NCBI GenBank assembly: GCA_028718635.1
Contig: JAQULK010000001.1
Coordinates: 316,692 to 380,691, forward strand
Length of the DNA stretch: 64,000 bases
Direction of reading: 5' to 3'
Source of the DNA: Minisyncoccota bacterium
GTDB taxonomy: Bacteria > Patescibacteriota > Minisyncoccia > Phycocordibacterales > UBA9973
Under the pieces are notes generated by a model. It saw only the letters and a program-made list of their open reading frames with translations, did not search any database and was not told where the DNA came from. The translations under genes and the position numbers were made by a program. Every line of letters begins with the position of its first letter. Position 1 is the first letter of the stretch. Positions 4,505 through 63,268 of the stretch are shown here, piece after piece.

Positions 4505-6322
4505 ATGAAAATTTCTTATAATTGGCTAAAAAGTTATATTCCTGAAGTATCTAATACAGATAATCTTGTAGATATTTTTAACTATCATCTTTGCGAAGTT
4601 GAAGGCCTAGAGAAAAAAGGTAATGATACTGTTTTTGATATAAATATTTTACCAAATCGCGCGCATGATCTGCTTTCCCATCGGGGCGTTGCTCGCGAGC
4701 TTGCTTCACTTTTAGATATAAAATTTATTGATCCGATTTTAAAATATAAAATTCCCGAATCAAAACCAACTAAATTAATAAAAGAAATCAAAAGCGATAA
4801 ATGCCGCCGTTATATGGGGCGGGTTATTCGCAATGTGAAAGTGGCGCCTTCGTCAGAATGGGTCGTGAAGTATTTGGAATCGATGGGGCAGAGAAGTATA
4901 AATAATATTGTGGATGCCACAAATATTGTGATGTTTGACTGTGGACAGCCGGCGCACGTTTTTGATTTAGAAAAAGTAAAAGATTTGAGATTGCAGGTGC
5001 GATATGCTGAAAACGGAGAGAAAATTACTTTACTTGGCGGAGGAGAAAAAATCATGAATGATACTATGATGGTTATCTCTGATGATAAAGGTAATTCGCT
5101 TGATATTGCTGGTATAAAAGGCGGAACATATGCCGAACTAAATCAAAACACCACGGAGATAATTTTAGAATGTGCGAATTTTGACCCCACGAGTGTCCGC
5201 AAAACTGCTCAAGCATTGAATATTTTTACTGATGCGCGAAAACGTTTTGAAAATGATTTGTCGCCGGAGCTGGCAGAGTATGGAATAAAAGAATTGTCTG
5301 CGCTTATTTATGAAATGTGTCCAAACGCTATATTTGAGGATATCGTGGATATTTATCCGGAAAAACAAAAAGAAAGAAAGCTTTCTTTTTCCGCTGAAAA
5401 AATTTCAAAGATTTTAGGTTTAGATGTATCTATTGAGGAGATAGAGAATATATTAAAGAGATATAATTTTACATATGTAGAAGATGGTGGACGGTTTGAA
5501 ATCGTAGTGCCACCGATGCGTCTTGACCTAGTAATCGAGGAAGATATGGCTGAGGAGATCGGCAGAATTTTGGGTTACGACAAAGTCAAAGCGCAAATGC
5601 CTGAAATTGGTTTTCAACCAAAGCAAAATGAGACTTATTTCAAAATATCTTTTGCGAGAAATAAATTGCTAGAAGAAGGATATTCTGAAGTGATGACAAG
5701 CAGTTTCTGCGATGAGGGAGAGGTGGAGGTCTTGGCTTCTGCTTCTGATAAAAATTTCTTAAGAACGAATCTGACAGATGGATTGAAAGAGAGCTTAAAA
5801 TTAGATCAAGTGAATGCCCCATTGCTTGGAATAGAAAAAGTTAAAATTTTTGAGATTGGAACAATTTTCAAGAAAAGCGGAGAAGAGATGCACGTTGCTT
5901 ACGGAGATAAAAAAAGAATAAAAGAAATGAAATTGAAAGATTTTCTACCACCTCGCCCTTCGGGCACTCCTCTTCAGAAAGGAGGAGAAGAATTTCCTCC
6001 CCGCCTTGATAAGGAGGGGGCAGGGGGTGGTAAATTTAAAATGTGGTCACTGTTTCCTTTTATTGCGCGTGATATCGCTGTCTGGGTGCCGGAAAATGTC
6101 CAGAACCAGGAAGTAGCAAAAATTATAAAAGAAAACGCGGGGGGAATGGTGGTTCGCGGACCGGAACTTTTTGATGAATTTAAAAAGGGAGATAAAATAT
6201 CTTATGCTTTTAGATTAGTTTTTCAATCTTATGAAAGAACTTTGAATGACCAGGAAGTAAACGATATTATGACCAAAATAACTGATAAAATAAAGGAAAA
6301 TGTTGATTGGCAAGTGAGGTAA
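4505..6322 (+). CDS. pheT: Phenylalanyl-tRNA synthetase beta subunit (short form) carrying an in-frame palindromic element insertion
   Basis: MKISYNWLKSYIPE N-terminus typical of PheT; B3/4 and B5 regions; adjacent to pheS. Confidence 0.88.
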   Translation: MKISYNWLKSYIPEVSNTDNLVDIFNYHLCEVEGLEKKGNDTVFDINILPNRAHDLLSHRGVARELASLLDIKFIDPILKYKIPESKPTKLIKEIKSDKCRRYMGRVIRNVKVAPSSEWVVKYLESMGQRSINNIVDATNIVMFDCGQPAHVFDLEKVKDLRLQVRYAENGEKITLLGGGEKIMNDTMMVISDDKGNSLDIAGIKGGTYAELNQNTTEIILECANFDPTSVRKTAQALNIFTDARKRFENDLSPELAEYGIKELSALIYEMCPNAIFEDIVDIYPEKQKERKLSFSAEKISKILGLDVSIEEIENILKRYNFTYVEDGGRFEIVVPPMRLDLVIEEDMAEEIGRILGYDKVKAQMPEIGFQPKQNETYFKISFARNKLLEEGYSEVMTSSFCDEGEVEVLASASDKNFLRTNLTDGLKESLKLDQVNAPLLGIEKVKIFEIGTIFKKSGEEMHVAYGDKKRIKEMKLKDFLPPRPSGTPLQKGGEEFPPRLDKEGAGGGKFKMWSLFPFIARDIAVWVPENVQNQEVAKIIKENAGGMVVRGPELFDEFKKGDKISYAFRLVFQSYERTLNDQEVNDIMTKITDKIKENVDWQVR

Positions 6323-6942: not shown

Positions 6943-6971
6943 TAGCAAAACTAATAATATTTTGCTATAAT
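6943..6971 (+). promoter_or_regulatory. Putative sigma70-type promoter (-35 TAGCAA, 17-nt spacer, -10 TATAAT at 6966..6971) only 8 nt upstream of the gyrB ATG, implying a leaderless or near-leaderless mRNA
   Basis: Consensus -10; no Shine-Dalgarno sequence before the ATG at 6980. Confidence 0.45.
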
Positions 6972-6979
6972 ACATATGT

Positions 6980-9900
6980 ATGGCGAAAGAAAAAGAAGAC
7001 AAAAAAGGTGCCGAAAAAGGGCACCGTTATGATGCCTCTGACATTTCCGTTTTAGAGGGGCTAGAACCCGTCAGGCGCCGTCCTGGCATGTATATCGGCA
7101 CCACGGGGCCCGAAGGATTACACCACTTAATATGGGAGATTTTTGATAATTCACGCGACGAAGCGATGGGTGGTTTTTGTAATGATATTGAAATTGTCCT
7201 TCTTCCCGGCAATCGCATTCGCGTGGCAGACAATGGCCGAGGCATACCGATCGATATTCATAAAAAAACAAAAGTTTCTGCTTTGGAAACTGTGATGACG
7301 ACGCTTCACGCTGGAGGAAAATTCGGAGGGGAAGGATACAAAGTTTCCGGAGGTCTTCATGGAGTCGGCGCTTCTGTCGTAAATGCTCTTTCTATTTATT
7401 GCAAAGCGGAAGTTTATAGGGATGGCGGAAAGTATTACCAAGAATATTCTCAAGGCAAGAAAAAATCTGCAGTTAAGAAGAGCGGTGCTTCGAAACTTCA
7501 TGGTACCATCATTACCTTTGAACCCGATGAAGAAATTTTTGGCAAAATTGTGTTTGATTGGAATACGGTAATGAGCCACATCCGCCAGCAAGCTTATTTG
7601 GTAAAAGGATTAAAAATTTTAATAATTGATGCAAGAGGGTGGGATAATCAGAAGGGCTTAAACGAAGAAGACGTTTTTTATTTTAGAGAATTAGGACTAG
7701 AGTTACCCTCAGTGACTTTTTATTTCGAAGGCGGATTGGTTTCTCTCGTAAAATATTACAATAAACTTCATAAGCCGATTCAAAACCACATTTTTTATGT
7801 TGAAAAAGAATTAGATAAAGTTGGGGTAGAAATAGCTTTACAATATGTAGATGATATTTCAGATAGAATTTTTCCTTTCGCCAATAATATTTACACCGGA
7901 GAAGGCGGAACCCACGTGACTGGTTTTAAAACAGCTCTCACTAGGACACTCAATACTTACTGCAAGAAAAATGAAATGATGAAAGAATCCGAAGGCGGAT
8001 TTACCGGCGATGATGTCCTGGAAGGATTGACGGTGGTTATTTCTGTAAAGCTTCGAGAGATACAATTTGAAGGGCAGACTAAAGGGAAATTGGGCAGTAT
8101 GGAGGCTCAGGGTGCGGTGGCGACAGTTTTCGGCGAAGCTTTTGCAAGCTTCCTAGAAGAAAATCCAGATGATGCCAAAGCAATAATCAACAAGTCAATT
8201 CTAGCTCTAAAAGCGCGTAAGGCAGCAAAGGCAGCCAAGGACTCAATCCTTCGCAAAGGCGCATTGGAGGGGATGACTTTGCCGGGGAAGTTGGCAGACT
8301 GTCAAAGTAAAAATGCCTCTGAATCGGAATTGTTTTTGGTAGAGGGGGATTCGGCAGGAGGATGTTTTTCAGCAGATACTAAGGTCGCTTTAGTTGACGG
8401 CAGAGATATTTCTTTTAAAGAATTAATTTTAGAACACAATCTAGGTAAAACAAATTATTGTTATACGATTCTGGATGATGGAAGTATCGGTATTCAAAAA
8501 ATTCTTAATCCAAGAAGAACAAAAATAAATACTGAGGTTATAAAAGTCATGCTAGACAATGAAGAAGAAATTGTTTGCACTCCAGACCACCTTTTTATGC
8601 TTCGTGATGGTAATTATAAAGCAGCTCAAGATCTCGAATCAAATGATTCATTAATGCCGTTGCGAAAGCAATTTTCTAAAATAGGCAAAAGAATTACAAT
8701 TGAAGACTATGAAATGGTTTATGACGGGAAAGATCATAGGTGGATATTTACTCATTTGCTTTCTGATAATTATAATTTAGAGCAAGGCGTTTATCCAATT
8801 ACTGAAGGTTCACATAGGCATCATAAGGATTTTAATAAAAGAAACAACAATCCTGAGAACATTATTCGTTTAACTAAGGAAGAACACATGGCATTGCATG
8901 CTCTCCTTTATGAAAAAAATTTAAAGAGGCCGGATGTTTTGGAAAAATTAAAGAACATAAGAAACACTCCTTCATATCGGGGAAAGATACGCCAGAAAAT
9001 GCTCTTAATGAGAGATGAGCTTAGCGCTCGCGCTAAAGCCCAATGGGAAAACGAAGAATATAAAAAATACATGGTTCAGAAATTTTTAGATTTTTATGCT
9101 TCCAACGAAGAATATAGAAAAAAAAGCCAAGAAATTTTAAAGATTGCTCAGAAAAAATATTGGTCAAATGAGGCAAATGTAGAAAAACAATCCCAAAAAG
9201 TAAAGAATTTTTTTAAAGCGCACCCTGAATTAAAAAAAGGACTTTCTGTAATAGCTAAAGAACAATGGGCAAACTTTGATTTATTGAAATGGCGAAGCGA
9301 TAAGACTAAAGGGCAATGGACCGAAGAATTCAGAGAAAAAAGAAAAGTTGCTTATGATAAAACCTATTATGAAAATACCATCAAGGTGTTGAGAAGAGTT
9401 TATGATAACAATAAAGAAATTGACGTAAATCTTTTTGAAGAAATAAGAAAGAGAGAAAATAATAAAAATGTTCTTTCTTTTAAAACCTTTGTAAGCAGGT
9501 TTTTTGACGGAAACGAGACTGAATTATCTGAGGCAGTGGAAAATTATAACCATAAAATAAAAAAAATTATCCAGCTTTCAGAAAAAATAGATGTTTATGA
9601 CTTAGAAGTTCCGGGAACTCATAATTTTGCTCTTGCTTCTGGAGTTTTTGTTCATAATAGCGCTAAACAGGGTAGGGATCGCCGTATCCAAGCGATATTG
9701 CCACTCCGAGGTAAAATTTTAAATGTTGAGCGCGCGCGAATAGACAAGATGCTCGCTTCCAAAGAAGTGAAATCTCTCGTTATCGCTATGGGTACTTCTA
9801 TCGGAGATACTTTTGATTTAGAAAAAATGCGTTATCATAAAATAATTATTGCTACCGATGCCGACGTGGACGGTTCGCACATTCGTACTTTATTGCTTAC

Positions 9901-18916: not shown

Positions 18917-20829
18917 TTTGTTTTTGCCATTTGGAATTTAATATTTTCTTCTTTGCCTTCTGTTATATTGCTTATTTGAAAAACAGAATTTTGTTGGGTA
19001 ATGTTTTTTACTGCTGTCATCGAGCCGTCTTTAAATAATTTTAATTCTAAAAGCATGCCTTTCATTGTCGGCTTGCTCCAAGATTGGTCAAAAATAAAAT
19101 TGCCAAGTGAATAGGCAATATAACCATTTTTGTAAATTTCGGTATCTTCTACGATATGCGGGTGTGAACCAATAATAATTTTTGCACCATCATCAATCGC
19201 TCTATGGGCTAATTCCTCTTGTCTTGCGTTATGTTTTGTCTGATACTCTACGCCGAAGTGAAAAGCGACGACTAAATAATCCACTTGTTTAGCTGCATTT
19301 TTAATTATTTGATCAAAATTGGGATTGTTTGCGAGGAGAATGCCTGCTTTGCCAGCGTCGGCAGGCAAATTGTTCGGACCAACGTCAGAAAATCCCAGGT
19401 AGCCGATCTTCATTCCATATTTTTCAATAATGGCTGGAGTTTCAGCTTCTGTTGCATTGTTTCCTCCGCCAGTATAAAGGATTTCATTTTCTTTTAGACG
19501 CGCGAGCGTATCAATAAAGGCGTTATGTCCCCAATCATTAATATGATTGTTTGCCAAAGACAAAACGCTTAAACCTGCACCTTTAAGAGTCGGGATGACG
19601 ACGGGATCCATTCTAAAGGAATATAAATTTTTCTGATCTGCCCCTTTGTCCGAAACTGGACCTTCCAAGTTAGCAAAGAAGATGTCCGTGTTTTTTGATA
19701 ATTCAAGCAAGGTGTCTGATTTTTCAAAAAGCTGAGAATAGTCATTGTTGAAATTTTTTATGACTGAATTTTTTACGCCGCGATCGAGCATTATGTCGCC
19801 GGCAAAAGACAAGGTAATAAAATTCTGATCTCTGATGTCCGGCATTCCGATTTTTTCCTGCACCCAATTCGTATTTATATCAGCAGCTCCGCCGTAGTAA
19901 ACATTTTTCCTTAAATATTTTAAAAGAGTTTCTACGTCATTATGACGGTCAGAACTTTGAAGTAAGGTAATGGCAATGGGTTGAGAACCAGTTTTTCCAA
20001 GAGGCAGATCAAAGAGAGAAACGACGGTTTCCTTTGCAGGGTCTGTATAACCGCTTTTTCCTCCCATGTATCCTTCATTCTTCAGGAACTGGCTAATGTT
20101 TGACCAACTGTGAGTTTTGGTGGAATAACTGTTTTTGGTAGTGATTTTAAATAAATCCGATTTTTGCTGAGCTATATAACCGGCCAATTTAAACATATCG
20201 GACACGGTTGATTGATTGTGGGAAGTGAGTCCGCTAGGGTCTTCATAAGAAGTAGAATTCATTTGCAGAGCTCTCGCTTCCTGATTCATTTTCGCGATGA
20301 AACTGCTTCTGCCGAAATATAAAGCAAGCGCTTCCGCTGCGTCGTTGCTTGATTCCAAAAGGAGCGGGTATATTAGATCAGAGATTTTTATTTTTTCTCC
20401 CAATCTCAATTCTCCGTTTTGGCCGGAAGTTGAGAGGGCGGTCTTGGTTATTTTGGTCGTCTCGTTTGGGTTTGCTAATTTACTGGCAACGAGCGCGGTC
20501 ATTAATTTGGAGGTAGAGGCAATCGGAAATTTTTGATCTTGATTTTTTGCAAGAATTACTTCTCCGGTATTCAAGTCGCCGACTAGATAAGCTTTAGCAG
20601 AAACTTTTGGTCCACCTTTTGTATCATTGTTTATATAATAATATTGGAGTTTTGTTGATTCTGGGGCGACAAGTTGGACTACTGAGGCCTCGTTATTTTT
20701 TGTTTGGAATATTTTTATAGAATTAATATTGTTAAAAATAAAGGATACAAAAAAAATACCAAGTATTATTGGAGGCATTGTCCAAAATATTAATTTTGTT
20801 TTATTTTTTATTTCTTTAATAAATTTCAT
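18913..20829 (-). CDS. Membrane-anchored fusion: D-alanyl-D-alanine carboxypeptidase (PBP5-like, SxxK = ASTSKLMT) and a C-terminal CapA/PGA-type metallophosphoesterase domain
   Basis: STSK motif; ANNHINDWG and GGGNNATEAE motifs of the CapA family. Confidence 0.7.
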   Translation of the reverse strand: MKFIKEIKNKTKLIFWTMPPIILGIFFVSFIFNNINSIKIFQTKNNEASVVQLVAPESTKLQYYYINNDTKGGPKVSAKAYLVGDLNTGEVILAKNQDQKFPIASTSKLMTALVASKLANPNETTKITKTALSTSGQNGELRLGEKIKISDLIYPLLLESSNDAAEALALYFGRSSFIAKMNQEARALQMNSTSYEDPSGLTSHNQSTVSDMFKLAGYIAQQKSDLFKITTKNSYSTKTHSWSNISQFLKNEGYMGGKSGYTDPAKETVVSLFDLPLGKTGSQPIAITLLQSSDRHNDVETLLKYLRKNVYYGGAADINTNWVQEKIGMPDIRDQNFITLSFAGDIMLDRGVKNSVIKNFNNDYSQLFEKSDTLLELSKNTDIFFANLEGPVSDKGADQKNLYSFRMDPVVIPTLKGAGLSVLSLANNHINDWGHNAFIDTLARLKENEILYTGGGNNATEAETPAIIEKYGMKIGYLGFSDVGPNNLPADAGKAGILLANNPNFDQIIKNAAKQVDYLVVAFHFGVEYQTKHNARQEELAHRAIDDGAKIIIGSHPHIVEDTEIYKNGYIAYSLGNFIFDQSWSKPTMKGMLLELKLFKDGSMTAVKNITQQNSVFQISNITEGKEENIKFQMAKTN

Positions 20830-22817
20830 TATATTAAAACATAGTCTATAGTTTTTTTCTCCAAATCAACTGCTTTTACTTTTATTTTAACATGATCGCC
20901 AAGACGATATCTTTTTCCTTGCCTACCGGCAGGCGGGTTCTTTTTTTGCCCGACCAATTCTAGTTTTTTTTCATTAAAAATATAAAAGTCGTCTTTCATA
21001 TCTCGTACTCGTACGAGGCCTTCGCATTTTGTACCTATCTCTTCAACATACATACCCCACTCAGTTATGCCACTTATCACTCCATCAAAACTTTCCCCTT
21101 TGCGTTTAGACATATATTCCACTTGTTTGTATTTTATGGATGCTCGTTCGGCTTCCGTTGCCCGTTTTTCTTGTTCAGAAGCGATTATGACAATTCTTTC
21201 ATATTCTAATAATTTTTCTTTTAATTTATTATTTGTCACTTTTTTCTTTGCAAGATAATCACTCAATAATCTATGGATCATAATGTCTGGATATCTTCTG
21301 ATTGGGGAAGTGAAATGCGTGTAATATTCAAAAGCTAAGCCATAATGGCCGATATTTTTTGTAGAATAAGTTGCTTTGGCCATAGACCTGATCACGGCGC
21401 GATGTACCGTATCACTCATTATTTTGTTTGGGTTTTTGCTTTTTAAATCTTCAAGTAATTTATTTATTTCATGAGTTGGAATTATCCCGTCTTGTAATGA
21501 TACTTTGTGTCCCAAGCTTCGTAAGAAAAATGCGAGATCAGCCATTTTCTCTTTTGATGGTTCATCATGGATGCGATAAATGGAAATATCTTTTGAGAGA
21601 ACTTTTGCCACTTTTTTATTTGCCAGCAACATAAACTCTTCAACTAGTCTATTGGAATCACCTCGTTCTTTTTTTATTACTTTTATCGGGGTACCCTTAT
21701 CATCTAAAATAAATTTAACTTCTTCTTGGTCAAGTGATATAGCGCCTTTAGCAAATCTTTCTTTGGTTAATTTTTTTGCTAAATTATTCAAAATGGAAAG
21801 CTCTTTATGTAGGGGAGCATTTTCATTTTTTATTGCCTCGCCCGTAGGGCTATGGCCGAGGGCTTTTTCTGCTTCTTCATATGTAAATCTTTTTTTAGAA
21901 TGTATTACAGTGCGACCAAACCATTCATCTTTTATTTCTGCGTTTTTATTAATAATAAATACTGCGCTCATGGTGAGTCGATCTTTGTGGGGGACTAAAC
22001 TGCACAAATCATTCGAAAGAGTTTCCGGGAGCATCGGTATTGTTCTGTCTACTAGATAAACCGAGGTTCCTCTTGTGCGGGCTTCTTCATCTAAAGCGCT
22101 GCCAGGTCTCACATAGTGAGACACGTCTGCTATATGGATGCCGACTTCATACACCTCACCCCCTAGCCCCCTCTCCTTATTAAGGAGAGGGGGGAGAATA
22201 CGAAAAGAAATTGCGTCATCAAAATCTTTTGCATCCTCTGGATCAATCGTAAAAGTTAGTGTTTTTGTGAAATCCCGACGTCCTTCATAATCACTTTTTC
22301 TTATTCCTTCGCGCTTTATTTTTTTTGCTTCTTCTTCTACTTTATTTGGAAGTTCTGAATCAAAACCTTTTTCTATCGCAATTGCATTCATCTCGGTAGT
22401 GTTGTCACCAGGTTTTCCCAAGATTTTTATTACTTTTCCAATGGGAGCTTTTTGCGCGTCTTTCCATGAAACTATTTCCACAAAAACTTTTTGCCCGATT
22501 TTTGCGTTATTCAAATTTTCTTTTGGAATCAAAATATCCGTGTACATTTTCGTGTCATCTGTTTTCAAAAAAACTACATTTTTTTCTTGTTCCAAAACTC
22601 CGGTAAAACGCATTTTTGCGCGAGAAATTATTTTTACTACTTCGGCAGTCTGGCGTTTCTGGCTTTTTGGGTGGAGAAGTATCTCCACCATATCTCCGTG
22701 AAGCGCAGTATTCAAATGCTTAAAATCAATTTCCGGATCTTGTTCTTTATTTTTTCCTATTCCTACGGCTACATATCCCGTGCCTTTTGAGGAGATAGAA
22801 ATAATGCCCTCGGCCAT
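20829..22817 (-). CDS. rnr: Ribonuclease R / RNB-family 3'-5' exoribonuclease with a C-terminal S1 domain; contains an in-frame palindromic insertion
   Basis: RNB domain motifs, S1 at the C-terminus; start chosen at MAEGIISI to avoid overlap with the divergent promoter. Confidence 0.85.
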   Translation of the reverse strand: MAEGIISISSKGTGYVAVGIGKNKEQDPEIDFKHLNTALHGDMVEILLHPKSQKRQTAEVVKIISRAKMRFTGVLEQEKNVVFLKTDDTKMYTDILIPKENLNNAKIGQKVFVEIVSWKDAQKAPIGKVIKILGKPGDNTTEMNAIAIEKGFDSELPNKVEEEAKKIKREGIRKSDYEGRRDFTKTLTFTIDPEDAKDFDDAISFRILPPLLNKERGLGGEVYEVGIHIADVSHYVRPGSALDEEARTRGTSVYLVDRTIPMLPETLSNDLCSLVPHKDRLTMSAVFIINKNAEIKDEWFGRTVIHSKKRFTYEEAEKALGHSPTGEAIKNENAPLHKELSILNNLAKKLTKERFAKGAISLDQEEVKFILDDKGTPIKVIKKERGDSNRLVEEFMLLANKKVAKVLSKDISIYRIHDEPSKEKMADLAFFLRSLGHKVSLQDGIIPTHEINKLLEDLKSKNPNKIMSDTVHRAVIRSMAKATYSTKNIGHYGLAFEYYTHFTSPIRRYPDIMIHRLLSDYLAKKKVTNNKLKEKLLEYERIVIIASEQEKRATEAERASIKYKQVEYMSKRKGESFDGVISGITEWGMYVEEIGTKCEGLVRVRDMKDDFYIFNEKKLELVGQKKNPPAGRQGKRYRLGDHVKIKVKAVDLEKKTIDYVLI

Positions 22818-22909
22818 AGACCTACGGGCGAGGTCTTGCCGTATGTGTTGTTTATTTAAATTATTTTTCACCTTATAAATATAGCATAATTTAAACAACC
22901 ATAGAGTGA

Positions 22910-22937
22910 TTGACAATCATTTAAAATATGGTAGAAT
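22910..22937 (+). promoter_or_regulatory. Strong promoter: -35 TTGACA (22910..22915), 16-nt spacer, extended -10 TGgTAGAAT (to 22937); the ATG at 22945 is 7 nt downstream, so the transcript is leaderless
   Basis: Direct consensus match. Confidence 0.55.
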
Positions 22938-23916: not shown

Positions 23917-23917
23917 T

Positions 23918-23968
23918 TCACCTCACCCGGCCTTTGGCCACCCTCTCCTTAATAAGGAGAGGGGCTGG
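23918..23968 (+). repeat. Family D nested palindromic element, copy D1 (outer cacctcaccc...gggggtgaggt, inner ccctctccttaataaggagagg)
   Basis: Inverted copy at 45137..45198; related in-frame copies inside pheT, smc-like, rnr and dnaG. Confidence 0.85.
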
Positions 23969-24077
23969 GGGTGAGGTCTTATTGCTACAAAATTTTAATT
24001 AGTTATAATTACAGGTATAGCAGTATGTCAGGTCGTAACACTGCAAGTTTAGTAAAAGATTAAATTAAAAAAACATT

Positions 24078-32199: not shown

Positions 32200-34053
32200 A
32201 TGAACTCTCCTGTCCAACAAATTAAGGAGAGGCTATCAATTGAAGAAGTAGTCTCTTCTTATATAAAGCTAGAAAAGGCAGGCGCAAACCTAAAAGCAAA
32301 ATGCCCGTTTCATAACGAAAAAACTCCTTCCTTTTTTATTTCCCCTGATCGAGGCACTTACTATTGTTTTGGATGCGGGGTAAAGGGCGATATTTTTACT
32401 TTCGTAGAAGAATTTGAAGGTCTTGATTTTAGAGGAGCTCTTAAATTGCTTGCCAGCAGAGCGGGAATTGTTTTGGAATCTTACAATCCGAAAGATCAAA
32501 GAAATCAGAGCGAAAAAGAAAGATTATATGAAGTCATGGAAGAAGCGACTGTTTTTTTTGAGAAGAATTTAAAAGAAAATCCGGAAGTTTCATCTTATCT
32601 AAAAAATAGGGGGCTGAATGATGAAAGTATAAAAAATTTCCGTATTGGTTTTGCCTTATTGGAGTGGCGTAAACTTTATGATTATTTAAAATCTAAAAAT
32701 TTTTCTGACAGTGAAATAGAAAAAGCAGGACTTGCAAAGACCCCCTCCGCCGTTGGCACCTCCCCCTTGATAAGGGGGAGGCTGGGTGGGGGTCTGTATG
32801 ACAGATTTCGTGGACGAATAATGTTTCCTATCTCGGATTCTAGCGGACGGGTTATTGCTTTTTCCGGAAGAATCTTTGTTGATGACGGAAAGTCTGCGAA
32901 ATACCTAAATAGCCCTGAAACTTCTATCTTTAATAAATCCGCTGTTCTTTTCGGCATAGATAAAGCTAAAGACCCCATTCGGAAAAATGACTTTTCTATC
33001 TTAGTTGAAGGTCAAATGGATTTGATTTTATCTCACCAAGCAGGATTTAAAAATACCGTAGCTTCCTCGGGGACAGCCATGACTGATTCAGTATTGTCAA
33101 AAGAAAATATTATAAATAACCTAGGACTTATCACCAGATTGTCAAAGAACATGGTCCTTGCTTATGATGCTGATAGAGCGGGGGTGAGTGCGACTAACCG
33201 TTTTGCTAAGATTGCATTATCTTTGGGTATGGATGTAAAGGTGGCAGATATACCCGAGGGAATGGATCCGGCTGATTTGATTTCCCGTGGCTATAGCCAA
33301 ATGGGCGAGGCAAAAGTTGGAGTGGATGCCTGGCGGGAAGCGATAAGGAATTCGAAACATTTTATCGAATTTATGCTGCTGAGGATCTTAAAAGATACTA
33401 ATTCTGACAATAGAAAGGCTGGCAGGGAAATAAAGGAACGCTTGCTTCCTTTTGTGAATGAGATAGAAAGCTCCATAGAAAAATCACATTTCATTACATT
33501 AATCAGTAATAAATCAGGGATTCCTGAAAATGCCCTGATGGAAGATTTGAAAAAAGTAGAAACTGAATTTAAGAATGAAAAAGAAGATATCAAAATCGCC
33601 AAAGAAAATATAGAGAAAAAATTAAGAAAAGACCCGATCGAGCGAAGGCTTTTAGGTATAGCTTTTTGGCAAGAGAGTCTGTCGGACGTTGGACGTCCGA
33701 AATTCGGACGTCCAACGTCCGACAAAACGTCCGACAAACCTAGAATTGATCCAGAATTGATTTTTAAAAAATTAGAAAAAGCAAAAGAAAATGTTAAAGA
33801 AAAATATAAAGACAGGAGAGAGGATTTGATTTATGAGGTAGAAGAATTTTACTCAAATAATGAAAATCTGGAAAAAGACGTAGAGGAAATGCTGCTCAAT
33901 ATAGAGGAAGAATATTTAAATGAAGAATTTAGCATTAAGATGATAGAATACCAGAATTGCAAAGATAAAATAGAAAAGGAAGAAATTTTTAAAAAAATAA
34001 GTGAAATAACAAAAAGAAAAGAAGATATTAAAAATAGTCGTATAAGAAAATAA
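32200..34053 (+). CDS. dnaG: DNA primase carrying two in-frame palindromic insertions
   Basis: Zn-ribbon CPFHNEKTPSFFISPDRGTYYCFGCG; TOPRIM EGQMDLI. Confidence 0.9.
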   Translation: MNSPVQQIKERLSIEEVVSSYIKLEKAGANLKAKCPFHNEKTPSFFISPDRGTYYCFGCGVKGDIFTFVEEFEGLDFRGALKLLASRAGIVLESYNPKDQRNQSEKERLYEVMEEATVFFEKNLKENPEVSSYLKNRGLNDESIKNFRIGFALLEWRKLYDYLKSKNFSDSEIEKAGLAKTPSAVGTSPLIRGRLGGGLYDRFRGRIMFPISDSSGRVIAFSGRIFVDDGKSAKYLNSPETSIFNKSAVLFGIDKAKDPIRKNDFSILVEGQMDLILSHQAGFKNTVASSGTAMTDSVLSKENIINNLGLITRLSKNMVLAYDADRAGVSATNRFAKIALSLGMDVKVADIPEGMDPADLISRGYSQMGEAKVGVDAWREAIRNSKHFIEFMLLRILKDTNSDNRKAGREIKERLLPFVNEIESSIEKSHFITLISNKSGIPENALMEDLKKVETEFKNEKEDIKIAKENIEKKLRKDPIERRLLGIAFWQESLSDVGRPKFGRPTSDKTSDKPRIDPELIFKKLEKAKENVKEKYKDRREDLIYEVEEFYSNNENLEKDVEEMLLNIEEEYLNEEFSIKMIEYQNCKDKIEKEEIFKKISEITKRKEDIKNSRIRK

Positions 34054-38600: not shown

Positions 38601-38676
38601 TGGAGCCGCCTCTCGGATTCGAACCGAGGACCTTCACTTTACAAAAGTGTTGCTCTACCAACTGAGCTAAGGCGGC
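38601..38676 (-). tRNA. tRNA-Thr (anticodon UGU), CCA encoded
   Basis: Reverse complement folds into a cloverleaf: GCCGCCT acceptor, GGTTCGAATCC T-arm, anticodon loop TTTGTAA. Confidence 0.85.
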
Positions 38677-39901: not shown

Positions 39902-39946
39902 AATAAAAACTCTTTTACCTGCCTGCCGGCAGGCAGGTTTGCTCTG

Positions 39947-52911: not shown

Positions 52912-54165
52912 ATGATAAATATCATGTCACATTGCAATCCGGAAGAAAGACAAGTTGAGCCTTGGGTTAACGAAGAAGGTTTTCAAAAATTGAATTTAAA
53001 AAATGTTGAAACTCCTTGCTATATTGTAAGCGAGGGGAATCTTGAGCGTAATTTAAAAATTCTCGAAAAAATACAGAAAGATTTAGGAGTAAAAATTTTA
53101 ATTGCCCTTAAATGCTTTTCGATGTATTCTGTCTTTCCGCTCATAAGAAAATATTTAGCGGGGACAGAAGTGAGTTCAGTAAATGAAGCGCGTCTAGGAT
53201 ATGAAGAATTCGGCAAGGAAAATCATATTTTTTCTCCATCCTACACCGATAAAAATATCAAAGAATATATAAAATACGGCAACCATATATCTTTCAACTC
53301 TTTTTCTCAATGGAACAAGTTCAAAAAAACCATCAAAAATTCCCTCGGTCGTAGCCCTACGGGTGAGACCAAGAAAAAAGTGTCTTGCGGTATCCGAGTA
53401 AATCCAGAACACAGCGAAGGAACCATGCCTATGTATGACCCTTGTGTGCCCCGTTCGCATCTAGGCGTGACTTTAGCGAATTTTGAAACAAATAACATGG
53501 AAGGGATAGAAGGATTGCATTTTCACACTCTTTGTGAAAATGGCGCCGATAAGTTTGCGCGCACTCTGAAAGCTTTTGAAGAAAAGTTTGGAAAATTTTT
53601 AGGAAAGATGAAATGGGTAAATTTCGGAGGCGGGCATCTTCTTACCAATTCCGATTATGACCTTGATTTGCTTTATAAGGTCGTTTCTGATTTTAAAAAA
53701 AGATACCCGCACTTGACGGTCTATTTCGAGCCGGGAGAAGCAGTAGTGATGAATACCGGAGGTCTAGTGGCTTCTGTGATAGACATTTTTAATAACGGAG
53801 TAGATATTGCCGTTCTTGATGTGTCAGCGGCGTGTCATATGCCGGATGTTTTAGAAGTGCCGTATTTGCCGAAAATTGTGGGTGCGAAACCTATAACTGG
53901 TAATTGTAAAATTGAGGGAGAAAAAAATGTTTATAAGCTAGTGGCGCCGACGTGTTTGACTGGAGACGTTATCGGTTTTTATTCTTTTCCTAATAAATTA
54001 AAAATCGGAGACAAGATAATTTTTCTCAATATGGCGATTTATACGATGGTAAAGAATAATACCTTTAATGGAGTCAATTTGCCGAATATCACCAAGATGG
54101 ACAAGAAGGGGAAAATAAAGGTCTTGAAAAGATTTGGGTATGAGGATTTTAAAAGAAGGCTATAG
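52912..54165 (+). CDS. nspC: Carboxy(nor)spermidine decarboxylase (NspC family)
   Basis: TPCYIVSEGNLERNLKIL ... ILIALKCFS ... GGGHLLT pattern of NspC. Confidence 0.78.
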   Translation: MINIMSHCNPEERQVEPWVNEEGFQKLNLKNVETPCYIVSEGNLERNLKILEKIQKDLGVKILIALKCFSMYSVFPLIRKYLAGTEVSSVNEARLGYEEFGKENHIFSPSYTDKNIKEYIKYGNHISFNSFSQWNKFKKTIKNSLGRSPTGETKKKVSCGIRVNPEHSEGTMPMYDPCVPRSHLGVTLANFETNNMEGIEGLHFHTLCENGADKFARTLKAFEEKFGKFLGKMKWVNFGGGHLLTNSDYDLDLLYKVVSDFKKRYPHLTVYFEPGEAVVMNTGGLVASVIDIFNNGVDIAVLDVSAACHMPDVLEVPYLPKIVGAKPITGNCKIEGEKNVYKLVAPTCLTGDVIGFYSFPNKLKIGDKIIFLNMAIYTMVKNNTFNGVNLPNITKMDKKGKIKVLKRFGYEDFKRRL

Positions 54166-54260: not shown

Positions 54261-54358
54261 GTGTGCTGATATAAAACTTGTGCCAAGAAAGAGTTTCGTA
54301 ATTCAAAAGAACTTCTTATTTACTTTTTTGTATTTTGTACTACAATTAGAGTTGGTCC

Positions 54359-54654
54359 TGCATTTGATAGCTACTCTCTGACTTAGGTCAGAGGGAGGAA
54401 AGTCCGAACACATACTCCGACCTCGCGTCGGAGAAGCGTAGCGGGTAACGCCCGTCGTCCGTAAGGACAGAGTTGCGAACAGTGACGAACCGATTTAGTT
54501 CGGGTGAAACGGCAAAATACTTACGTGTGTGCAAGATCGTGCTCCCCGACCCAGGTCGGGGAGAGAATCGCTTGAGCTTGGGAGTAATTTCAGGCCTAGA
54601 TAAATTGCTATCGTCCGACTTCGGTCGGATCACAAAATTCGGCTTATAAATGCA
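54359..54654 (+). ncRNA. rnpB: RNase P RNA (bacterial type A, reduced length) with a compensatory P4 variant
   Basis: GAGGAAAGUCCGAAC paired with ACAAAAUUCGGCUUAUAAA (consensus GUCCGGGC / ACCCGGCUUA; GG->AA compensated by CC->UU); P1 tgcatttgatagc / gcttataaatgca. Confidence 0.75.
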
Positions 54655-54668
54655 AGACCACAAACATG

Positions 54669-63192: not shown

Positions 63193-63268
63193 GGGCCCAT
63201 AGCTCATCTGGTAGAGCGCCTCATTTGCAATGAGGAGGTAAGGAGTTCGAGTCTCCTTGGGTCCACCA
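63193..63268 (+). tRNA. tRNA-Cys (GCA), CCA encoded
   Basis: Cloverleaf GGGCCCA...TGGGTCC; anticodon loop TTTGCAA; T-loop TTCGAGT. Confidence 0.85.

Follow-up and report, generated by a model that had tools for sequence, protein, structure and literature searches.

A single-sided triplex-type repeat lies in frame in the RNase R gene of a Candidate Phyla Radiation bacterium

Why does the RNase R of one Candidate Phyla Radiation (CPR) bacterium carry ten residues that its closest orthologues lack, and what is the GC-rich palindrome that encodes them? The question arises from a stretch of 64,000 nt (hereafter, the window) from a Minisyncoccota bacterium (Nomurabacteria; Patescibacteria/CPR), contig JAQULK010000001.1, positions 316,692-380,691, with a GC content of ~37%. 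The host gene, rnr, occupies an open reading frame (ORF) of 695 codons on the minus strand (20829-22916), identified by homology, Pfam domains and a match in the Protein Data Bank (PDB). Its best 120 homologues, mostly from Candidatus Nomurabacteria/Paceibacterota, are annotated as RNase R; the domains are OB_Dis3, CSD2, RNB, and S1, and the closest solved structure is B. subtilis RNase R (PDB 8cdu, E = 2e-120). A first-pass annotation of the DNA letters had described the site as a copy of a dispersed palindromic family, inserted in frame into rnr. The sequence it quoted is located at 22152-22196 on the plus strand, and the minus-strand ORF carries DFDDAISFRILPPLLNKERGLGGEVYEVGIHIADVSHY across the element. 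We conclude that the feature is real and not a product of chance: it is an in-frame triplex-type repeat in a putative surface turn of RNase R, and other essential genes of this CPR genome have been invaded in the same way.

The insertion is seen most directly in the protein alignment. RNB motif I (DFDDA, 22212-22226, minus strand) and motif II (HIADV, 22122-22136, minus strand) form the upstream and downstream boundaries of the β-hairpin that bears the insert, and the catalytic motifs are intact on both sides of it. From DFDDA to HIADV, the window protein has 35 residues versus 25 in the closest orthologues, and the 25-residue length recurs in 73 of 84 related loci taken from species-representative genomes and metagenomes, all Bacteroidota-titled loci included. 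Two relatives, L001 (88% identical protein) and L002 (84%), read DFDDAISF-KEIANNE/KEVSNDE-YEIGIHIADV, with RILPPLLNKERGLGGEV replacing KEIANNE/KEVSNDE in the window protein. Alignment to B. subtilis RNase R (8cdu) places a 10-residue gap exactly at the insert. Orthologue alignment was the check that the first-pass annotation had proposed, with the lack of a gap as the outcome that would speak against it; the gap of exactly 10 residues in L001, L002, the related loci, and 8cdu bears out the in-frame insertion. At the codon level, compared across L001, L002, L004, L230, and L231, a 51-nt segment of the window (CGT ATT CTC ... GAG GTG, 22152-22202, minus strand) stands in place of the 21 nt AAA GAA ATT GCA AAT AAT GAA of the empty allele, for a net gain of 30 nt, or 10 codons. 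On these alignments, the rnr copy has replaced the four-codon tight turn of the β-hairpin between RNB motifs I and II and is predicted to read through as 14 residues, a net addition of ten. The turn residues (xNGx or xNNx) are the sole variable positions in an otherwise near-invariant block of the 84 related loci, and this variability suggests a solvent-exposed tight turn. The structural model that had also been proposed as a check gave a partial answer: AlphaFold2, run with 39 close homologues, predicted two strands (204-210 and 225-232) flanking the insert, but it did not place the loop (mean pLDDT of 59, and <50 for the greater part of the RNB domain). The predicted peptides that span the insert are ISFRILPPLLNKER and GLGGEVYEVGIHIADVSHYVR, and the insert probably has no function for the protein.

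The anatomy of the element is better described in nucleic-acid terms. It extends for 42 nt (22152-22193, minus strand) as CCCCCTCTCCTT-AAT-AAGGAGAGGGGG-CTA-GGGGGTGAGGTG, with the in-frame reading PPLLNKERGLGGEV. On the sense strand, the pyrimidine arm CCCCCTCTCCTT (22182-22193, minus strand) comes first, as the 5' hairpin arm; it pairs over a perfect 12-bp stem with the purine arm AAGGAGAGGGGG (22167-22178, minus strand), the 3' hairpin arm, across the 3-nt loop AAT (22179-22181, minus strand). This loop varies among the filled alleles, yielding N, D, A, or G at the free position of LL-x-KER. A second loop, CTA (22164-22166, minus strand), which is TTA in L004 and L231, leads into the tail GGGGGTGAGGTG (22152-22163, minus strand). 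The tail is a mirror of the reverse-Hoogsteen type: set against the reversed purine arm GGGGGAGAGGAA, it has G facing G, and A or T facing A, in 11 of 12 places, a relation that has no Watson-Crick reading. The hairpin folds as DNA at -13.7 kcal/mol (z = -4.2) and is also stable as RNA (-29 kcal/mol with flanks, z = -3.0). The first-pass annotation noticed the palindrome but missed the 3' mirror tail, along with three further rnr inserts described below. The rnr copy is single-sided, consisting of one hairpin and one 3' tail with 3-nt loops. In its predicted layout, the element is of the class II purine-motif intrastrand triplex type (G*G-C, A*A-T, and T*A-T triads, with an antiparallel third strand), and the single strand d(CCCCCTCTCCTTAATAAGGAGAGGGGGCTAGGGGGTGAGGTG) can, judging by its base order, fold as a hairpin plus such a triplex. 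A G-quadruplex reading of the G-runs was ranked below the triplex; a quadruplex does not require the mirrored order of the interruptions. Rfam returned nothing for the elements at gathering thresholds, and the snoRNA matches were at chance level only (E about 0.5).

The rnr element is not alone. The core palindrome CCCCTCTCCTTATTAAGGAGAGGGG occurs at three window loci with at most 3 mismatches, versus 0.00 expected from 100 shuffles, and looser matching combined with repeat finding and a triplex-motif scan raised the count to six family loci in 64 kb, which upholds the earlier claim of a dispersed family. Of the six copies, four are in-frame segments of ORFs, those of pheT, an SMC-like gene, rnr, and dnaG, with the gene identities assigned by Pfam. 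The copy in the interdomain linker of pheT (5996-6032, plus strand; PPRLDKEGAGGG) is decayed, with an imperfect hairpin and an intact tail, GGGGGTGGT. Full double-sided copies lie in frame in the SMC-like gene (16963-17020, plus strand; DPFRHSDTSPLIRGRLGGG), where L001 and L002 have no insert and L233 shares both the insert and its junctions, and in dnaG (32739-32794, plus strand; TPSAVGTSPLIRGRLGGG). Two more full double-sided copies are intergenic: one at 23919-23978, which begins 3 nt past the rpsP stop codon and has a triplex-type motif on each strand, and one at 45137-45196, between the mreC stop and the tgt start. The full copies (23919, 45137, 32739, and 16963) add, on the 5' side, the complement of the tail and a small side hairpin, and they fold as RNA into a Y shape at -35 to -41 kcal/mol.

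The two intergenic copies have features of their own. The spot downstream of rpsP (23917-23990) holds a GC hairpin that differs between lineages, namely the triplex-type repeat in the window, CCTGCCTGCCGGCAGGCAGG in L231, and a decayed version of the latter in L001 and L004, a comparison that suggests the end of rpsP as a recurrent hairpin site. The tail of the copy before tgt gives GGTGAGGTGAATTATG (45185-45203), the sole Shine-Dalgarno-like sequence among seven start regions, the others being AT-rich. Mimicry of Shine-Dalgarno and anti-Shine-Dalgarno sequences by the arms (TAAGGAG/CTCCTTA) was considered and rejected, as the seven start regions show no Shine-Dalgarno usage except the element tail abutting tgt.

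How the coding copies sit in their genes can be stated precisely. The rnr copy was said to lie in the opposite orientation, which holds in window coordinates but not relative to the host gene: in all four coding copies (pheT, the SMC-like gene, rnr, and dnaG), the sense strand runs from the pyrimidine arm to a G-rich tail on the 3' side. The reading frame does differ, as the first-pass annotation had it, with LLNKER in the rnr copy versus PLIRGR in the SMC and dnaG copies; the pheT copy shares the rnr frame. The further claim that the element is open in multiple frames and orientations goes too far, for this copy and, strictly, for the family. The rnr copy is stop-free in only one of three sense frames, the one in use, and in one of three antisense frames; its other frames are stopped, by TAA from the loop TTAATAAGG, TAG from CTAGGG, and TGA from GGTGAGG. 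Across the family, the loop TAA is always met in one frame per orientation.

Evidence that the triplex-type layout is a property of the family comes from metagenomes, where a pattern scan recovered copies on at least 120 metagenome contigs and 25 IMG/VR contigs. Among the matches listed, 51% of 158 sites have 9-10 of 10 mirror triads; when tails were exchanged between sites with different arms, 0% reached 10 triads and 10.7% reached 9. In each of six arm subfamilies the tail matches the arm of that subfamily, for example GGGAGGGGAA/GGGTGGGGTA, GGAGGGGGAA/GGTGGGGGTT, and AGGGGAAGGGGAA/AGGGGATAGGGTT; since members of one subfamily do not count as independent, the data amount to about six covariation events, all of them consistent. 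The stems covary as well: the three positions per arm left free by the search pattern are complementary in 96% of cases, versus 53% with shuffled partners (157 listed metagenomic and IMG/VR sites), and the subfamilies differ through compensating changes in all stems. Of the 162 listed sites (metagenomic, IMG/VR, and window), 40 fall within ORFs of 150 aa or more, and both orientations are found inside long ORFs in the metagenomes. On one metagenomic contig (L107, 14570-14896), tandem units of ~110 nt, each with a triplex-type element, occupy the contig end and adjoin a 132-aa ORF; a reading of the contig's ORF list and of the DNA around the array gave no obvious transposase, although no family search was made there.

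This layout has a precedent in E. coli. Repeats first known as BoxC have been described anew as potential intrastrand triplex (PIT) elements, and after that as TM_ECO (PMC4666352, with Hoyne et al. 2000 cited there), with the consensus CCCTCNCCC N3-6 GGGNGAGGG N3 GGGNGAGGG, as in CCCTCTCCCTTGAGGGAGAGGGTTAGGGTGAGGGT (PMC4666352). As a single strand, TM_ECO (for example CCCTCTCCC-TTGA-GGGAGAGGG-TTA-GGGTGAGGG) folds in vitro into a stable triplex of the class II purine-motif type, by circular dichroism and nuclear magnetic resonance; TTA is the type A loop, and the motifs block DNA polymerase in vitro and have neither promoter nor terminator activity (PMC4666352). In E. coli K-12 they are exclusively intergenic, their number varies sharply among close strains, and they have been linked to local deletions and rearrangements (PMC4666352). 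The window family resembles these repeats in the order of its parts (C-rich arm, loop, G-rich arm, 3-nt loop, and G/T-rich mirror arm, with TTA or CTA as second loop), in near-identical words (CCCTCTCC/GGAGAGGG/GGGTGAGG), in its dispersal as multiple copies of single-sided and palindromic double-sided forms, in copy numbers that differ sharply between close relatives, and in local deletions that leave partial motifs. The sequence features of the BoxC/PIT/TM-type class are present: arms of at least 8 nt with a 1-6 nt loop, a mirror third domain with at most 1 mismatch, covariation, and multi-copy dispersal. The differences are equally definite. The window blocks CCCTCTCCT, AGGAGAGGG, and GGGTGAGGT are each, by eye, one base off the TM_ECO consensus; the arms are 12 rather than 9 nt long; the host is a CPR bacterium of ~37% GC; the full copies have an extra side hairpin; and four of the six copies are predicted translated parts of essential genes, in contrast to a motif that is always intergenic. 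Both the consensus and the intergenic location that mark TM_ECO in the strict sense are lacking, and a blastn search with the element against E. coli genomes gave no match, which is uninformative for 53 nt. We assign the window element, on sequence, to the structural class rather than to TM_ECO proper, without implying common descent with the E. coli motif.

The location inside genes recalls a second system, the Rickettsia palindromic elements (RPEs; Ogata et al. 2000, reviewed in PMC10969869). Like RPEs, the window repeats are in-frame palindromic inserts in unrelated housekeeping genes (here pheT, the SMC-like gene, rnr, and dnaG) of a reduced genome, read through as extra peptide compatible with protein function, and neither has a known transposase (PMC10969869). 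Unlike the Rickettsia-specific RPE families, which are about 100-150 bp long with no mirror or triplex tail described, the elements here measure 42-60 nt, outside that size range, and what is conserved in them is nucleic-acid structure rather than peptide. Repetitive extragenic palindromic (REP) elements are likewise short, GC-rich, imperfect palindromes that are highly repeated, singly or in clusters, but they are extragenic, carry a GTAG/CGTC tag, have no mirror third arm, and come with a REP-associated tyrosine transposase (RAYT; PMC3733652). The window hairpins are flanked by TATTCT, GGCCA, TGGCA, and TGACA, with no GTAG/CGTC foot tag, and no RAYT was found among the 42 window ORFs scanned with Pfam. 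The mobile GC clusters of yeast mitochondria are a further parallel, as GC-rich palindromes that spread in an AT-rich genome, with an in-frame case in var1 and no triplex-type tail described; they belong to an organelle system and have different sequences. For CPR bacteria with palindromic, in-frame, or triplex repeats, nothing relevant was found in the literature library searched.

The turn of RNase R exists in several states, which allows the history of the insert to be read across relatives. Inserts of 3-28 residues occupy this same turn in 59 of the best 120 orthologues (71-100% identical), and a neighbour-joining tree implies at least 30 state changes. The empty, ancestral state is seen in L001 (KEIANNE), L002 (KEVSNDE), and L008 (RILNDNE). 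The window-type allele recurs in L004 (85% identical) and L231 (73%), with the same junctions and 2-3 differences in 51 nt. L230 holds a tail-only remnant, ATT CTT GGG GGT GAG GTG, in which 30 nt corresponding to the hairpin and loop 2 are missing. L232 has a copy of the same subfamily with another junction and a decayed stem (KEL followed by PLLDKERAGGEV), L005 has a different subfamily with its own tail followed by the old GGGTGAGGTC tail, and L233 has two back-to-back motifs in opposite orientation that add 26 residues. Every difference between the inserts of the window, L004, and L231 falls outside the 36 structure-forming nucleotides, and peptide variation among alleles is confined to the loop codons (LL-N/D/A/G-KER); it is therefore the nucleic acid, not the peptide, that is under constraint or is homogenised by other copies.

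The load of repeats differs by lineage. Six copies occur in the 64 kb of the window and four sites in 22 kb of L233, while L001, L002, and eleven other relatives have no family copy in ~20 kb each (syntenic DNA for L001 and L002). In L233, a Nomurabacteria relative whose RNase R is 75% identical, positions 10621-10703, 15317-15374, and 17910-17968 cover the paired motifs of the rnr turn, the 57-nt SMC insert, and a double-sided copy between nusB and rpmF. Its SMC insert has the junctions of the window insert and differs from it at 2 of 57 nt, in SMC proteins that are only 77% identical, whereas the site is empty in L001 although the L001 SMC protein is 87.5% identical to that of the window.

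The junctions bear on how the copies arise. In three filled/empty comparisons (rnr, SMC, and downstream of rpsP), no target duplication was found, and the insertions replace 12-21 nt of the target; the element thus lacks the terminal inverted repeats and target-site duplication of a transposable element of the miniature inverted-repeat kind (MITE). Copy ends vary between single-sided and double-sided forms, with or without the side hairpin, and are variably truncated. A Pfam scan of 42 window ORFs detected no transposase or RAYT domain. Templated copying is weakly favoured because of these four observations together: no target duplication, replacement of target, variable truncation, and no transposase or RAYT.

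We consider it probable that the rnr site holds one single-sided member of a GC-rich, structure-forming triplex-type repeat family that is dispersed in the genome and acts as selfish or neutral DNA. Where intergenic space is scarce, such a repeat would land in genes as well, and it would be retained there only where it is in frame, stop-free, and placed in a tolerant surface turn. The copying step itself, the least firmly supported part of the scheme, might be templated patching associated with replication or repair, or gene conversion from other copies, with no need for a transposase. Filled alleles may further move between lineages by homologous recombination, and hairpins may be lost again by deletion, with the tail left behind. 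Several points weigh against this account. First, the same insert with the same junctions appears in lineages 73-85% identical while closer relatives are empty, a poor fit to random templated patching; such sharing points to site specificity, allele transfer, or long-lived polymorphism. Second, the triplex of the window element is predicted from base order, and in vivo footprinting revealed no stable triplex for TM_ECO (PMC4666352). Third, translation of the insert follows from the open frame alone, and exposure of the turn from residue variability, in a region where the AlphaFold model is poor. Fourth, that no transposase was found in 64 kb is a poor guide to the rest of the genome.

An enzyme-driven alternative is that the repeat is a non-autonomous MITE- or REP-like element, mobilised in single-stranded form by an enzyme that recognises hairpins and is encoded outside the window, for example of the HUH/Y1 type (RAYT or IS200/IS605 kind). 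Enzymes of the HUH/Y1 type insert without target duplication beside a short target word. A hairpin-based element with neither terminal inverted repeats nor target duplication would suit such an enzyme, as would the lineage-specific load (window and L233 loaded, L001 and L002 clean) and the identical junctions in separate lineages, if the enzyme is site-specific. In the three filled/empty comparisons, AAT or AATT precedes the insert and is already present in the target. A common target word AAT/AATT was nevertheless dropped as unproven, as the left flanks of metagenomic copies share no word. The 42 scanned ORFs without a transposase or RAYT domain, the untagged hairpin foot, the variable copy ends, and a target that always loses 12-21 nt also count against mobilisation, and TM_ECO was not found with mobile elements in E. 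coli (PMC4666352). We regard this explanation as unlikely, though worth keeping in view.

A more doubtful proposal holds that entire filled alleles, exchanged through transformation and homologous recombination, are the main vehicle of spread, perhaps as an uptake or recombination signal or under GC-biased conversion, with intragenomic copying secondary. Its appeal lies in the conflict between filled/empty states and gene similarity at both rnr and SMC, and in a repeat much better conserved than its flanks. Around the SMC insert, L233-like sites do rise modestly: the baseline is about 4 vs 13, and within about 90 nt of the insert the counts reach 12 vs 19 and 15 vs 13. The rnr insert behaves differently. 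Its flanks are not shared among filled alleles (over the upstream 90 nt, the informative sites split 2 vs 15), and a recombination patch at rnr was rejected, given the unshared flank and no rise in identity between the window and L004 beyond the insert. The differing subfamilies and junctions at the same turn (KEL followed by PLL, RIL by PPLL, and KEL by PSL) need several independent origins in any case. Known DNA uptake signals are words of 9-12 nt, in contrast to structures of 40-60 nt here. The incongruent sharing may equally reflect site-specific insertion, very short conversion tracts, long-lived polymorphism, or concerted evolution.

Related to this proposal, and in our judgement just as improbable, is the idea that triplex-type repeats form a drive system acting on single-stranded or incoming DNA, in which the hairpin-plus-triplex fold is kept by selection even inside essential genes and biases recombination or uptake, with filled alleles spreading among Nomurabacteria lineages as a result. 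If true, it would explain the identical inserts and junctions in distant relatives while closer relatives stay empty.

Two functional explanations fare worse. One is that the site is a functional RNA hairpin in the rnr mRNA, a processing, pause, or autoregulatory site kept by selection on the transcript, as the stability of the hairpin as RNA, the conservation of its stems among alleles, and an RNase III gene nearby might suggest. The same repeat, however, lies in unrelated genes and intergenic DNA and in both orientations relative to metagenomic ORFs, half of the orthologues have no insert at all, and Rfam has no match. The covariation of the mirror tail, which has no Watson-Crick reading, is also foreign to an RNA element, as purine-motif triplexes do not form in RNA (PMC4666352); we find this explanation very hard to sustain. 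The other is that the ten extra residues form an adaptive loop of RNase R, with the palindrome incidental. The frame is kept, the insert lies beside catalytic motifs, and many orthologues are extended at this point, but the same nucleotides occur in non-coding DNA and, in another frame, in other proteins, the insert peptides are unrelated between lineages, variation tracks DNA loops and stems rather than residue properties, and the closest relatives lack the insert, which together make adaptation a remote prospect. An assembly or sequencing artefact can be set aside: GC-rich hairpins can disturb assembly and nothing more speaks for it, while the identical protein P0001 comes from another source and the same insert is found in independent JGI metagenomes (L004 and L231).

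The window contains other inserts and repeats besides the triplex-type family. The three further inserts in rnr, all GC-rich and in frame relative to the closest orthologues, lie at 22806-22835, 21834-21860, and 20916-20936 (minus strand). DLARRSMAEG and LGHSPTGEA belong to one repeat family and lie in opposite orientations, the family's third member being at 53336-53378, and PPAGRQG resembles the palindrome ACCTGCCTGCCGGCAGGCAGGT at 39917-39938. In the PheRS beta subunit, the linker before the FDX-ACB domain (5925-6032) is built from two GC-rich elements, LPPRPSGTPLQKGGEE and PPRLDKEGAGGG; at this linker point in L002 (21600-21941), pheT is called as two overlapping ORFs in different frames. 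The dnaG ORF holds a perfect palindrome with a 21-bp stem at 33680-33724, TGTCGGACGTTGGACGTCCGAAATTCGGACGTCCAACGTCCGACA, read through as LSDVGRPKFGRPTSD, a separate family of coding-region palindromes. Two 45-nt GC-rich direct repeats in the tgt ORF (46042-46086 and 46378-46422) are 93% identical and have the same 11-residue translation, and the Pfam TGT match is split in two. The gyrB gene (6971-10357; 1128 aa) contains an intein (Intein_splicing, residues 501-896), and the L002 gyrB, of 697 aa, has none. A repeat of the form GACCGCGACCTGC(C/T)TCTAACGGGATG at 338-372, 14423-14457, 47946-47974 (minus strand), and 49203-49237 (minus strand) ends exactly at the ATG of four genes, namely an addA-like helicase, nusB, a decarboxylase, and asd, with inverted partners ~70 nt upstream (239-279, 14330-14363, 48045-48076, and 49296-49336); a MITE-like element is one possible reading, and a leader or regulatory element common to these genes is another. 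The class A RNase P RNA (54355-54662) and two tRNA genes (38604-38676 and 63193-63265) are all ordinary.

The probable answer to the opening question, a triplex-type repeat, perhaps multiplied by templated copying, that reached rnr as one site among several, has consequences beyond this gene. It joins in one family two phenomena that were each known, triplex motifs of the BoxC/PIT type and in-frame gene colonisers of the RPE type. Triplex-type repeats are abundant in CPR bacteria and enter the proteins of essential genes (RNase R, primase, PheRS beta, and the SMC-like protein), of which we found no report in the library searched. GC-rich peptide inserts such as PPLLNKERGLGGEV will distort alignments, phylogenies, and structure predictions of CPR marker proteins. 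A single β-turn of a single gene, found empty, filled, reduced to a remnant, and doubly filled over 120 relatives, amounts to a natural experiment on the nature and multiplication of BoxC/PIT repeats.

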